DNA from: Bugula neritina
Lineage: Eukaryota > Animalia > Bryozoa
Assembly: GCA_964035545.1 (NCBI GenBank)
Contig: OZ037770.1
Location: 8,066,973-8,130,972, forward strand
DNA: 64,000 bases
Direction of reading: 5' to 3'
A program made the translations under genes and the position numbers. Under the pieces are notes generated by a model. That model did not search any database. It had not been told where the DNA came from and saw only the letters and a program-made list of their open reading frames with translations. Numbering within the stretch: the stretch's first letter is position 1; each line of letters opens with the position of its first letter. Below, piece after piece: positions 45,201 to 54,200 of the stretch.

Positions 45201-48200
45201 GCAGATTTATGAAGTACTTATGATTAAATAAGCTATTTACTGCCGACAAAATGATAGTCGTTTTTGTACCTCTGTTGAAAAAAATACCAAGTTTTAGCTA
45301 AGAACACCTGTCTAGGCACCCCTTTAAAGTCGAACTGAAACTTGTTGAAATTATATTGATTCAGAAGCTTACTTTTTAATAGAGAAATATGACTCGCCTA
45401 ACTGCTAATTACTGCCCTTTGAAAGCAAAACGAATTAATAAAGTTGACAGCATAAAAGCGATAATTGAAAAAGCGTGGCCTATATAATTTTTAACATATT
45501 GTAGTGGCCAACGAGGCGTACTAGTTTTACACGTGCATTAGAGCCAATCACATTGAAGCACGTGATTACCCCCAGCGAAGCAGAATTCTTAAAAACATTT
45601 TTATATAGTTAACAGTTGAGAGTAGTATGTGAAGATACAGTAGATAGTAGACTTGTGAATGTATTGTGGAGATTAAATACATGTATTTTACTTTTACTTG
45701 TATATATTGGGTTAAATACAGACTTTTATCCCGTATCACCAGTGAAGTGCTTGGAGCTATCAATTAAATAAGATATAGTTGCATATATAATCTACCCTAA
45801 ATAATATAATTCGCAAAATTATAACAATATAAATACGTCATCTAATCACCAAAGTCATAATTAAATACCAATATTTACAAGGAGTTGTTACTCTTTTTGA
45901 TTATTTTTTGGAACTTGGCCGATTAAGTTACTATAATACAAAAATTTTGACAAATGACTTTTACAATGCAGTGTTGTAGTGGCTTGTGGAGCTACCAGCT
46001 TAATAACGGGGAGATGTTGTTTCCCCATAAGTGCAGCACGGGGTCATTGGGATGACCCGGAACAGCAGACAACCAATCGGACTGACTGACAGTCTTAGTA
46101 GTGATAGCTTCCCGCGTGTTAGTTGAGTTTTGGCTGGTGAACTGGTGTGGTGGCTCGTGGAGCTACCAGCAGCACGATACGCAGGGTCGCGTAATTGACC
46201 CGGAACAATGACAGCCAATTAACGGCTTTGATAGTTATTAGCAGTAGTAGTTTTCCCGCTGTTAGTTAGTCGAAGTTAGAGTGTTGAATAGTCTAGATGT
46301 GTGAAGTATTAAATGTATTTGTATCGTTTTTGTAATGTGTTATTGTGTTTAAAATATATACTCGTTCACTCGACTTATCCTGGTGAAGTTCTCTAGCAAG
46401 TAATTAGACTCTCTGGATTGCATATCGACCCTAGTTCTGAAAATCATAACAGTGGTGGCAGCAGTGGGATAGTGCACATCCAAGATGGAGACTGAAAATG
46501 CTAGAATGCAACCACCAGCAGTAGAAGGTGAGCGCAGAGACAATGCTGTAGAGACAATGCCTGTCAACCATGTAGTAGACGAGCGAAGGGTTCCGAGGAA
46601 ACTAACTGAAGACCGCTACCGGTTAAAGGCACCCACCTTCACGGGTGAAGAAGAGGTGGAGCAATTCATCCAAGAGTTTAGCGACGTAATGGACGTCGCC
46701 CAGTGGCCCCCTAGGGTGGCCCTGCTGAAGCTTAGAATGGCATTGATGAACAAAGCCAAGCCTTATGGGCTGGGAGTAGACATCGATAATATCTTTGCTT
46801 CTCTGCGGGCCCGCTTCGGCCTCTCTGCTACAGATGCCCGGGCCCGACTACAAAGGCTGCGGCATGATCCCTGCACTCCGCTACGGGAACATGCCGCCGC
46901 GGTCATGAAGCTGGCACAGATCGCGTACAGCAACTTGCCCCCAGCCAACCGCGAGAGGTATACCCTTGACGCCTTCATAGCATCCGTCGACGATCTGGGT
47001 CTCCACCACCAGTTTCTAGCTAGGGGAGTCACCACCGTTGAGATGCTCTGACAGAGGGGGAAGCTTACCTCCTAGCCAGTCAGATGCATAAAAGTCGTGG
47101 GAACTCCCGTCAAGTGGAGGTAGACCGCGCGGACACGGCAGCGGGACGAGAGGAGGAAACCTCCGCGACGGCTACCGTGGCTCAGTTAGCGACAGCATCG
47201 AAAGTCTCTCAACTGACTGACATGCTGGCCAAACTGATAGCAACACTGACACCCCAAACCCCAGTAGGTACCGCCGCTGAGCCCGTATGGCCACCGGCGC
47301 CGCCACCGGGGGAAACGGTCAGTTTTTGCTGGGAATGCGGAAATCAAGGACATTTCCGCAGGTACTGTCCCGTCCTAACTCCGGGGTTAAACTACCGCGG
47401 CCCGCAGATGTTCCCACTTCTTGCGGGCCGACGATGAAACCTCTAGGGAAGAAGAAACGCAGGTCACCCAGACGGGTGCCGCGTGCTGGTGACCAAAAGT
47501 GGCAACAGCCGCGATGGACCAGCAAGGGGCTCCGCCCCGCCGCTACCTTTTCCATGCCCCTCCACAATCGCTTCGACGGGCTACCAGCCCAAGAATCTGG
47601 ATGGGAGCCAGCAAAGGTAGCCGGAAATCTAGCCTCGGCACCTCCGAGGCCCACTTACCACCATCCCAAGAGGCCTCCCTCGCGACCCAAGGCGAGGGAG
47701 GTACTCCCTGCAAGAGTAAGGCCTGAAGAGAGAGCTCAGGTGCAGCCCCATGGGAACAGCTATTTTTTGCCCGGTAAATATGGAGGCAAAGCTGTGACTT
47801 TTCTCATTGATTCGGGCTGTACCATGAACCTCCTAAGCCGCCAACTCTTCCACACCCTCAGTACTAAGGTCAGGGGCGAGATGGAACCATACGAGGGGGA
47901 GTATGGCACCCTAGCTGACGGGTCATGCCTTCCCTTCTATGGTATAATTGAGCTGACGGGACGAGTCCGTGATCAAACGATCCAAGAGACGTTTATCATC
48001 AGTCAGCTCAAGGAGGATGCCATCCTTGGGATGCCATTCCTGAAATAGCACGGATGTCGATTCGATTTTAGTAAATGTGCGATGGTGATGTCCGGGCGGG
48101 AACTCGCCTGTGTCGACAAGTTCAGCCGCCCTTTAGTGGGAGGTGTGCAGGTGGTACGCAACCGTACCATACCAGGCCGCTCCCGGGCTACCATTCACTG

Positions 48201-51200: not shown

Positions 51201-54200
51201 TAACTATGATCTTGGTATGAAAACTAGATTGCCTCACTCAGCTCCGACTTGACTGAGCCACTCAAGCTGGAGATAGGCTAGTGAACTACAGTGGTAGGAA
51301 CTCAGATTGACTTAGAGATTTCACACTCTCATGTATGTATGTGTTCTCTTTCAACTATTCACTACCGTAAATCTCTGTGAGAGCTTAACCAAATGAGCAG
51401 TTGTCAGGTTGTCTAAGGCTGACAACACTGCAGTGTAATTTACTAAGGCTGTTGAAACTCTTTCAGGTTACACTCGACCCGCTACAACCACGGTACAGAA
51501 CCGAGCACTCCCCGCTCCACACCACGAGGAGAATACCAATGGCGGGCGACCCGAGCATCTGCTCCGCTGCTGGCGGTGGGTGTCGCCAGAGACGGAGAGA
51601 AAAATAGAGGCTGCATAGGGACTCAAAGGGAGTACGCAGTGCCAAATTTGTTATGAGGATAGCCCGTCTCACCGCTCACTGAGACTACATGTGGATGCTT
51701 ATTTCCTACTGACATTCTGTCCATGCGGACACCACGCTGTCTATCCCTACCCAGTCATTAGACATCGAGCAGCTGGATGCTTCCCGGGAAAAAACTTCGT
51801 CGTGGATGCTGATCTATACCCGGAATTCTTAGCACTGATACGGCCCTTTGTGAAGAAAGTGATGTTGCTGGCCGTTTTGACCTCCGAGTTCCAGCATGTG
51901 CTGAGACATGCCCGACAACAATCACCGATGGTATCGGACCGACCCCAGATTGTATATACCCCTGAAGAACTCAACTACCCTGACGCAGAAGAGGAGATAG
52001 CACCTCCCCCTTATAAGGTCCCGACCCCATCTCTAGATCGTACTCGCCTGGCTACTGTAGAATAGCGGCTCCTTCAGCTACAGGCCGAGTTCACCCAACT
52101 AACCCCAGACCTATTAGACACTACGACAAGACTCTATCAATTAAAAGGCTCCGTGGGCAGGATTAAACGGAAGCTACATGCCTGTCAAGCCAAACACCGG
52201 CTCTCCAAGCCATGACTCTGGTTCTCCTTCCTGGAATGATTTGTAAGCCTTACCTTCTTGAAAGTGCTTGACTACAAGGCTGTGATCATGTAAATGCTTG
52301 ACAGCTCATCTTCCTTGTCCACTACCACAGCTAGCGCTACTTCTCTCTTCGTAGCTAACCAGTAGTATATGCCGTAACTGTTATAATGATTATGTCTGCC
52401 GTTGTTATATATATATATATATATCTGTCTGTATTTTTCTGTTTTGGTCTACTGATATTATGTGTGCTGATTGTAAATTTTTTTATATATAATAAAGGGG
52501 GCTTTCTGCTGGTGGGGGCGGTGTGGTGGCTCATGGAGCTACCAGCGTAATAACGAGGAATTGTTATTTCTCCCATAAGTGCAGCACGGTCATTGGGATG
52601 ATCCGGAACAGCAGACAACCAATCGGACTGACTGACAGTTTTAGTAGTGATGGCTTCTCGCGTGTTAGTTAATTGAGTTTAGGCTGGTGAACTGTGTAGA
52701 CCGTATCAATTAGCTGAATGTATTTGTGTTACTGTAGTTTTTGTGATGTATTCTTGTGTATAAAATATATTAGTGTTGACTCGAAATATCCTGGCAAAAT
52801 TTCTCTAGCATAGTAACTAAGACTCTCTTGATTGCACACCAACCCACAAATTTTGGAAATTTTAACAGTGTCACTTGATGAAATTTCAACCCAGCAAAAT
52901 TGAATTTCTGATTGAAAATTGTGAAGGTATAAACGCCACTTATTACTTTGATCTGGAATGCAGCAGTTAACAGATTACAGTATGCAAACGAAAAGACAGG
53001 CACATCAAGGTTATAGTAGAGTATTTCATAATAAAACACAACACTATAGCATAAGGAGAGTAACTCCTGATATACAGTGATGACTCTCTCAATAAACAGG
53101 TTAAACTAAAAATACTGATGAATAAATAAATTAATCTAACAAACTAATCAGTAAAATAGGTGAGTAAAATATGCATGTCCTAACCACTACTAGGTACCAG
53201 CAGTTTAATACATGACTTATGAGAAGTGAGACAAGATACAACAGAGTGTAGACACAGAATAATTGAAATATTTTCTCCCTTCATAGTGAAGATTATATTA
53301 TTTCATGACCCTGTATATTCTCATTAACAATTTAATGTTGTTGTAAGAGGAATCTCTGCCTTAAAATAGTTACTCTATCAGGGCCTTACAACTACAGAAT
53401 TATAATTGAAAATTAAAAACTCACATCAGCTGAAACATCTATTGATGCTGTATGATCGGGTTGAACTGATATTCTGTAACCTTCAATAACTCCAACACCT
53501 TCACTTGAGACAACGCTCCAGTATATGTATATTGAAGAGTGAGTATAAGACCAGATGTTGACAGTCCTAGGAGCCTTAGGACCTGTAGCGGTGAGTCATG
53601 TATCAAATGTATGTGTCAACTACTTAATATGTCAACCAGTGTATGTATCAACCAGTGTATGTGTCAACCAGTGTATGAGAATTACAAGTCATCATGAACA
53701 CATGCAGCCACTGTACACTAATGAAAAGCTACAGGCTAAGTTGCGATGGCCATAATATAGGCAGTAAAAGAATAGTGCAACACACTCGCTAAGTATAAAA
53801 ATATAGTACTGAACATGTGTAGTCTTGCACAGTAGTACAAAGGGCCATAAGCTGAACTCGAGAAAACGTAATGTATGCCTAAATTCACCACAATCGTTGA
53901 TATGGTCAATGTCACCACAGCAGCAAAAGTTGCTAACACATTTTTCAGAGCCTAACTACCTGCATACTAAAGCTCAACGTTGATTTTCTGTCGTAGTAAA
54001 ATCTCTAATCTTGAAATTTTCAGGTTATTTACAATGCAGTGAAACATTATAAGCCCATAGCTAGAAGTTGGATTGTTGGCACCAGCAAACATCTACATGC
54101 CAGTAGGCATTGCATTCCAGATGTCTAGAGGGTCAGACCTGCTCCATAGTCCTTTGTGGTCTACCTTGAATATGGAGTATAGCTGAGTAAAATGAGTTGC

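Follow-up and report, generated by a model that had tools for sequence, protein, structure and literature searches.

The LTR retrotransposons found in a 64,000-nucleotide stretch of Bugula neritina DNA (contig OZ037770.1, hereafter the window) carry a third open reading frame behind pol, ORF3, and the question raised by this locus is how that frame is expressed and what its product may do. The elements, E1 to E5, present the features of Ty3/gypsy LTR retrotransposons, i.e., paired LTRs, a primer-binding site, and target-site duplications (4 bp at E1, E2, and E4), with pol in the order protease-RT-RNase H-integrase, according to Pfam on the ORFs of E1. Alignment of the LTR pairs resulted in identities of 303/304, 286/290, 291/337, and 160/163, the first of these in E1, the youngest copy in the window. 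In E4, on the forward strand, the 5' LTR (45975..46451, with an internal duplication) and the 3' LTR (52522..52867) have approximate ends taken from this alignment, and the primer-binding site (46453..46470), presumably that of tRNA-Leu, is an identical word in all five elements. No copy within the window is intact or able to make the full ORF3 product. The copies are also mosaic, E1 against E5 giving 92-93% in RT/IN, 70% in gag, and about 54% in ORF3. The deep and varied cover of the elements in run X1, which has contigs of up to 59 kb and looks like genomic DNA, suggests a large family.

The ORF3 exon lies at 51467..52215 in E4 (forward strand; two zinc-finger-like motifs and a C-terminal coiled coil, with in-frame stops, the first at codon 50), at 57241..58022 in E5 (reverse strand; the first finger is not preceded by a Met, and a single internal stop lies at 57469-57471), at 2715..3511 in E1 (reverse strand; open for 264 codons and also modelled, lacking the AG of the acceptor), and at 29312..30120 in E2 (forward strand; stop at 29362-29364). 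Between E4 and E5 its dN/dS is 0.07-0.11, and, as judged from the substitutions, strong purifying selection acts on ORF3 (dN/dS about 0.1), which is a real gene, in agreement with the first-pass annotation. In the E4/E5 type, the stretch from the upstream stop to the first finger has no start codon, so that an upstream exon is needed, and in the E1/E2 type in-frame Mets are found both upstream and downstream of the acceptor.

Alternatively, ORF3 might be translated without splicing, starting at an upstream ATG of its own, to give a protein of ~360 residues with an acidic N-terminus, the splice-like words being coding or structural leftovers. In E2, the frame stays open over the 105 codons that lie upstream of the acceptor, with an in-frame acidic extension that has its own ATG (29026..29311, forward strand, inside intron 2; E1/E2 type only), at least 6 of the 31 E1/E2-type homologues begin at that Met, and the extension has a dN/dS of 0.38, where the other frames give 0.54 and 0.76. 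This explanation is nevertheless quite unlikely, as the E4/E5 type has no Met before the finger and is still strongly selected, and as the extension presents little codon periodicity (17/23/26) and a pS of 0.45, versus 0.75-0.81 in ORF3, which together point to constraint at the level of the DNA.

A candidate source of the missing start is found at the beginning of gag, where the donor GAAG/GTGAGC (the slash marks the junction), referred to here as donor 1, is located at 9208/9207 in E1, 20931/20932 in E2, 46527/46528 in E4, and 63762/63761 in E5, as first reported. Counted from the gag ATG, it is in phase 1 after 31 nt in E2 (leader exon 20901..20931, forward strand, ATG at 20901) and after 43 nt in both E4 (coding part 46485..46527, forward strand) and E5 (63762..63804, reverse strand, ATG at 63804). 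The matching gag start of E1 (9208..9250, reverse strand), with the donor intact, has no ATG, a detail that had gone unnoted. E3 was confirmed to have no donor 1, and the E3-type gags, which are without it, make up 5 of 76. The AG/GTGAG donor is also that of host introns in the window.

No word of at least 8 nt other than the donor 11-mer is common to the first ~550 nt of gag in E1, E2, and E4, lineages whose synonymous sites are near saturation (gag pS 0.70-0.73). Only three independent lineages are compared as DNA, and, given one donor, a chance match of the other two is estimated at roughly 0.08 from the observed same-codon rates. The first-pass annotation had allowed that the word might be explained by a required E-G-E peptide with free synonymous variation, an account which did not hold up on the gag homologues. 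The Glu that follows the donor Gly is kept in 71/71 homologues, whereas five further columns of Glu keep it in 453/501 (p=0.002, a value calculated from 69/69). The donor Gly is replaced by S5, D1, R1, and V1, the pattern expected of a fixed GGY codon, while seven Gly columns used for comparison give R+E 71 and S+D 22 (p=0.002). Both p-values are optimistic, given the kinship among the homologues, a possible anchoring of the alignment by the Glu, and a lean to S/D/V in three of these seven control columns as well. The substitutions at donor 1 in the 71 gag homologues are better fitted by a fixed DNA word than by a free peptide. Around donor 1, nine variable positions are listed in 141 nt in run X1, none of them at -4 to +7, and two contigs stop matching at +7; the power being low, this is given no weight.

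At the other end of the predicted intron, an acceptor with a branch-like word is present at 29312 in E2, 51467 in E4, and 58022 in E5, and at the same position in E1 (3511) AA is found instead of AG, all as previously described. ORF3 is found in one frame alone, the one compatible with a phase-1 donor. In E4, predicted intron 1 (46528..51466, forward strand, 4,939 nt) would remove gag-pol, of which pol is broken and the integrase partly missing. On a crude score, the acceptors of E4 and E5 fall no higher than the top 33-38 among some 540 AGs. The longest exact run between these two copies in the 1,360 nt around the acceptor is, on the other hand, 33 nt long and spans it (-18 to +14), despite a pS of 0.66 in ORF3. 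Among 1,088 columns, from the end of pol to the end of ORF3, the four longest runs that are invariant in all four copies correspond to the acceptor tract, the second ATG discussed below, and two parts of a block upstream of it, and none falls in the codons of ORF3. The junction is covered by 19 of the 37 ORF3 homologues, in which the preceding residue varies (V8, S7, L4), each of these amino acids having a codon that ends in YA, and the following residue (D17, E1, G1) always has a codon starting with G.

The joined frame is open across the junction, as had been claimed, but not to the end of the exon: a stop ends it past codon 16 in E2, codon 49 in E4 (ahead of the finger), and codon 183 in E5, and the one frame open for 264 codons, that of E1, lacks both a start codon and the acceptor AG. 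The term "Gag N-terminus fusion" is also overstated, even if the splice signals are indeed phase-matched, since gag adds just 10-14 residues, which amount to little more than a start codon. None of the 15 joints listed, of 93 in run X1, which covers all of E5, skips from donor to acceptor, and no loose end was found at donor 1 over E5 in the same run; a spliced DNA copy was thus not seen, which proves nothing. The spacer was considered separately as an RRE-like element and is not counted as support: its folding (z -3.3 and -3.7 in E1/E2, -1.2 and -1.7 in E4/E5) is unexceptional within the element, where 8 of the 22 segments of E1 reach a z of -3 or lower, compensatory pairs are few (6/79 and 1/66), the four-way consensus is weak, and a comparison of the spacer with Rfam gave no match.

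A second possible first exon was recognized at the end of pol, where a phase-1 donor (donor 2) follows a conserved ATG (ATG2) after 25 nt in all four elements (E1, E2, E4, and E5), against a background of 1-2 similarly spaced ATG-donor pairs per 88-125 ATGs. This exon lies at 51170..51194 in E4 (forward strand, just past the pol-frame stop at 51142-51144), 58288..58312 in E5 (reverse strand; ATG2 at 58312, donor 2 at 58288/58287), 3822..3846 in E1 (reverse strand; ATG2 at 3846, donor 2 at 3822/3821), and 28970..28994 in E2 (forward strand). The predicted intron 2 is 265-317 nt long across the four elements, i.e., 272 nt in E4 (51195..51466, forward strand; branch-like word 51441-51447, acceptor AG 51465-51466), 265 nt in E5, 310 nt in E1, and 317 nt in E2. 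New here is this second leader exon with its own ATG, which gives ORF3 two possible first exons; together with the in-frame extension of the E1/E2 type, the conserved donor 2 makes the splice from the gag leader one of at least two routes.

This arrangement might instead reflect the capture of a separate transcription unit, in which a promoter at the end of pol would drive the ATG2 exon, the short intron, and ORF3, with donor 1 serving another purpose or being kept by the peptide. Such a unit would account for the strength of donor 2, the top U1 match among 417 GT sites in E1 and among 544 in E2, for the brevity of intron 2, and for the invariance in all four elements of ATG2 and of the block ~72 nt 5' of it (51097..51121 in E4, forward strand). 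Even so, it is rather unlikely, given that donor 1 is conserved as DNA and in the same phase, that the promoter and start site are postulated, and that the donor 2 of E4 is a weak one (score 6).

It is very improbable that donor 2 is spliced while pol is being read, or that ATG2 serves for reinitiation, so that ORF3 would come from a near-genomic RNA and E1-like copies would make an integrase-zinc-finger fusion that could guide integration. The pol-tail frame of E1 does continue across ATG2 and reaches donor 2 in phase 1, and ATG2 overlaps the pol-frame stop in E2 and follows it by 24-25 nt in E4 and E5; in three of the four copies, however, the pol frame stops before donor 2, so that an integrase fusion would not be general, with the frames themselves uncertain because the copies are decayed. 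The reading of all these signals as chance look-alikes in decaying elements is likewise very improbable: no copy in the window is intact and antisense donor-like words are kept as well (integrase 4/4, gag 3/4), but ORF3 is selected, and it is at the two donors and at the acceptor that conservation of the DNA concentrates. So far as the aligned copies indicate, all three signals are conserved as DNA and have phase 1 in common.

As for the product, finger 1 has the C-x2-C-x12-H-x3-H spacing of a C2H2 zinc finger, with conserved hydrophobic positions, both His invariant, and the first Cys nearly so, and Pfam zf-C2H2 scores it below the cut-off; finger 2 is atypical (C-x-C..H..C). The predicted model presents a confident finger domain and a 49-residue helix, with the finger domain modelled poorly from a single sequence (pLDDT 50). 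Basic runs are found in 15 of 16 ORF3 sequences, in which the top 19-residue hydropathy is 0.38-1.80 (<1.0 in all of the E1/E2 type), with no clear membrane segment. No clear signal peptide or membrane anchor of a fusion glycoprotein is seen, and the comparisons gave no env match. Weak profile and fold matches link the first finger with C2H2 fingers and the basic-plus-zipper stretch with bZIP factors, the likeness being to SALL3/4 and Kaiso in the former and to MafG and C/EBP-beta in the latter; the best profile match, to SALL3, has an E of 0.006, and the bZIP matches (profile positions 190-251; MafG, C/EBP, Jun) reach an E of 0.5-5 only. Foldseek matches in the PDB (E 0.6 or higher) are, like the profile matches, below significance, and the coiled coil took up the results of the full-model structure search (Z 5.9 or lower), which barely probes the finger fold. 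Possible analogies are ATF2, with its finger-plus-bZIP layout, and the viral HBZ. No related loci were found in the metagenome and viral contigs searched, and the homologues are thus proteins only.

Taken together, these features make it likely that ORF3 is a third gene behind pol, expressed by splicing, with its start taken from either of two leaders, and that it encodes a nuclear regulator of the element. A subgenomic mRNA would arise by splicing of LTR transcripts between donor 1, which lies 10-14 codons into gag, and the acceptor; ATG2 and donor 2 would provide a second route over the 265-317 nt intron; and the product, with its fingers, basic patch, and zipper-like coiled coil, is predicted to act in the nucleus. 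Action on the DNA of the element, in transcription, seems somewhat more likely than a role as a Rev/CERV-like RNA exporter, with other roles taking the rest.

Third ORFs that are spliced and started from gag are already known, as in the env of errantiviruses and ASLV and in the CERV of Cer1. The errantivirus env of Drosophila is described as a third ORF behind pol expressed by way of a subgenomic RNA that is spliced (PMC4276936), and joined by splicing to a peptide of Gag within the idefix subclade (bioRxiv 10.1101/2023.08.03.551782). The parallel with gypsy env drawn in the first-pass annotation holds for the splice only, since the cargo here is not an envelope; it is soluble, of the finger/coiled-coil kind with no clear membrane segment, and a second ATG-bearing leader lies at the end of pol. 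In ASLV, a retrovirus, the donor is a few codons into gag and the first six amino acids are common to Gag and Env (PMC8220723), whereas here 10-14 gag codons lead into a non-envelope product. CERV, from the gypsy-type element Cer1, is presented as a nuclear accessory protein made by splicing, which draws on exons of the gag frame, has five exons and 517 residues, a Cys-rich, possibly C4, finger, perhaps a zipper, and a basic NLS, has homologues in nematodes only, and is required for the export of the unspliced RNA (PMC10309623); by description, ORF3 differs in having one coding exon and fingers of the C2H2/C2HC type. The LTR retrotransposons of bdelloid rotifers are reported to have captured non-env ORF3s, typically from spliced messages, with GDSL esterases, DEDDy exonucleases, and coiled-coil or membrane ORFs as cargoes, and the word "finger" is absent from that main text (PMC5408684). 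The portions considered of PMC8220671, PMC13524379, and PMC12440569 describe no such ORF, and the combination of a finger/coiled-coil cargo with a two-leader layout is absent from the literature searched, although supplements or Repbase-type catalogues may already list ORF3.

Given that every leader and the acceptor are in the same phase, the gag and ORF3 modules could be swapped by recombination with the frame intact. By analogy with the Tat and Rev of HIV, a speculative possibility is that these are "complex" animal retrotransposons, in which alternative splicing of two leaders would yield a captured zinc-finger/zipper regulator of the element's own transcription or export, with gag and regulator cassettes being exchanged between subfamilies. 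For few elements, Cer1 with its CERV being a case, are there answers on how the unspliced genome is exported and on self-encoded regulators, and a selected finger/zipper accessory gene in a large family, with two predicted junctions, may be tested with plain RNA-seq. The cargoes of third ORFs would gain a class resembling transcription factors, and the shared splice phase would indicate how modular exchange could occur.

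The window contains five related gypsy-type LTR elements (E1, E3 and E5 on the minus strand, E2 and E4 on the plus strand) set in AT-rich DNA of animal-like appearance, where duplicated exons with GT-AG introns are also present. Paired LTRs (by LTR pair alignment) and a common primer-binding site are found in E1, E2, E4 and E5, each of which also carries a third ORF (ORF3) of about 250-270 codons behind pol; the pol domains are in gypsy order, and target duplications of 4 bp are present wherever both element ends are in view. E1 (2128-9591, minus) has LTRs identical at 303/304 positions but no intact gag start or acceptor, and several of its pol frames are disrupted; this may mean that a defective lineage was copied in trans, or that the assembly contains errors here. 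An AT-rich insertion of ~2.5 kb separates gag from protease in E2 (~22000-24500, plus), and an internal deletion in E4 (~50100-50150, plus) has removed much of the integrase core present in E1 and E5. E3 (38220-43950, minus) is cut off at its 3' end and represents a divergent subfamily without the donor GAAG/GTGAGC found near the gag start (donor 1); its pol is broken, with an insertion near 39600-40200 and then an E4/E5-type integrase fragment at ~38225-38580. This element lies between, and on the same strand as, two duplicated host exon copies (35625-36007 and 44231-44613, minus) that share 78-86% identity as protein and are presumably fibronectin-III-like. Minisatellite arrays occur at 12756-13375 (period 20 nt), 14265-15460 (31 nt), 30874-31672 (26 nt, most units having a minus-strand donor-like word) and 37943-38274 (16 nt).

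The first-pass annotation had proposed that ORF3 is a real gene, and selection on its sequence bears this out: dN/dS between E4 and E5 is 0.11 for the exon and falls to 0.07 in the finger domain, at a pS (synonymous difference) of 0.66-0.71. Homologues from JGI, ENA and Logan data fall into two types, 6 resembling E5 and 31 resembling E1; the types are themselves homologous, at 36% across 106 residues (E 1e-22), with the Cys and His residues kept in both. In the structural model (mean pLDDT 78.5), residues ~30-145 form a confidently predicted domain, followed by a loose linker carrying a basic patch and by a C-terminal helix of 49 residues. The fold matches tandem C2H2 proteins weakly (E 0.6 or higher), and ORF3 profiles weakly match SALL fingers at E 0.006-0.06 and bZIP factors at E 0.5-5. 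An envelope identity was rejected, given that no clear membrane segment was found in ORF3.

The same annotation had joined donor 1 to an acceptor before ORF3, both in phase 1, and its donor and acceptor coordinates were all correct. ORF3 is indeed open only in the frame matching a phase-1 donor; donor 1 is in phase 1 from the gag start in E2, E4 and E5, while E1 has no ATG there, a point the annotation had missed, and also lacks the acceptor AG, which it had noted. The claimed open frame holds across the junction, but a stop ends it after 16 codons in E2, after 49 in E4 and after 183 in E5, and none of the window's copies can make the full product.

The conservation of donor 1 might instead reflect a required Glu-Gly-Glu peptide with free synonymous variation. 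Synonymous sites of gag are near saturation among E1, E2 and E4/E5 (pS 0.70-0.73), yet over ~550 nt the three lineages share no word of 8 nt or longer except the 11-nt donor word; by our estimate from the window alone, two further lineages would match it by chance with a probability of ~0.08. Antisense donor-like words, which serve as the chance control, persist in the integrase of four of four elements (4804 plus, 27933 minus, 50200 minus, 59286 plus) and in the gag of three of four (8697 plus, 47070 minus, 63219 plus). Among the 120 gag matches listed and used, of 195, 76 extend to the N-terminus: in 69 the donor motif is covered by residues, with 31-64% identity in its flanking columns, five are E3-like without the motif, and two begin downstream. 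In a second alignment of gag homologues, Glu follows the donor Gly in 71/71 sequences versus 453/501 at five other Glu columns (p ~0.002), and the donor Gly changes to S five times and to D, R and V once each, versus 71 changes to R or E and 22 to S or D at seven other Gly columns (p ~0.002), in related sequences where Glu may anchor the alignment and three control columns lean to S, D or V too. Since S and D are transition neighbours of GGT/GGC, the donor Gly codon looks fixed across the family, and a fixed DNA codon looked the better fit than the free peptide. Nearby host introns have the same donor, AG/GTGAG.

At the acceptor, E4 and E5 share their longest exact run in 1,360 nt (33 nt), and E1 and E2 share 22 nt over the branch and pyrimidine tract. 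The 19 of 37 ORF3 homologues that cover it, selected by matching a pattern to the branch residues, which are thus not evidence, have V, S or L before the junction and D, E or G next, compatible with YAG in all 19. By a crude home-made score, the acceptor is among the two best of 568-688 AGs in E1/E2 but only among the best 33-38 of ~540 in E4/E5. The strongest point for an upstream exon is that the E4/E5-type ORF3, itself under selection, has no Met from the nearest upstream stop to the first finger, so that either such an exon or some recoding is needed. In E1 (3512-3560, minus) and E2 (29260-29311, plus) a predicted hairpin, supported by no compensatory change, would base-pair the branch-like word and some of the tract, and might damp splicing.

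The proposed interpretation is partly supported, and is extended by a candidate second leader exon, spotted by eye and post hoc. In four of four elements a phase-1 GT donor (donor 2) lies exactly 25 nt after an ATG at the pol end (ATG2) and 265-317 nt before the acceptor; such pairs occur once or twice among the 88-125 ATGs of each element. Donor 2 matches U1 best of all 417 GT sites in E1 and of all 544 in E2; its match is moderate in E5, and in E4 it is weak. Between the pol end and the ORF3 end, the four longest runs invariant across all four elements fall at ATG2, at the acceptor tract and, twice, within a block ~72 nt upstream of ATG2 (51097-51121 plus in E4; 3918 minus, 28899 plus and 58384 minus). 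This block, 25 nt identical between E2 and E4 and partly kept in all four, might encode a peptide motif, act as an internal promoter element or supply another phase-1 acceptor. The short intron of the E1/E2 type doubles as an in-frame acidic extension of ORF3. This extension has a Met of its own, at which at least 6 of the 31 E1-type homologues begin, and carries a weak coding signal (dN/dS 0.38; differences by codon position 17/23/26).

Identities are unequal along the elements: E4 and E5 share 96% in gag and 73% in ORF3, and E1 and E5 share 92-93% in RT and integrase, 70% in gag and ~54% in ORF3, so gag and ORF3 types have been reshuffled around pol. Every leader and acceptor is in phase 1, a uniformity that recombination may exploit.

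Spliced third ORFs begun in gag are established for errantivirus env (PMC4276936; bioRxiv 10.1101/2023.08.03.551782) and ASLV env (PMC8220723). The predicted splicing layout of ORF3 is like that of env, as the annotation held of gypsy, but ORF3 is not an env gene. Its predicted splicing also works like that of Cer1 CERV, a nuclear accessory protein made from spliced RNA and required for genome export (PMC10309623); the non-env ORF3s of rotifer elements are of other kinds (PMC5408684). A third ORF that combines a C2H2-plus-zipper cargo with two leader exons seems unreported, no account of one being found in the mainly open-access literature searched.

The sequences themselves show the signals, their common phase, their conservation and the selection on ORF3; from these we infer that LTR-driven RNA left unspliced would serve as genome and for Gag and Pol, and that its alternative fate would be the joining of donor 1 to the acceptor, the gag ATG starting ORF3. 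Donor 2 would open another route, using either an internal start or an RNA spliced further. The spacer before the acceptor folds well in E1/E2, yet many other segments fold at least as well, and a role as an RNA export element was unsupported. For the ORF3 product we predict a nuclear location and an action on the element itself, more likely on its transcription than on RNA export.
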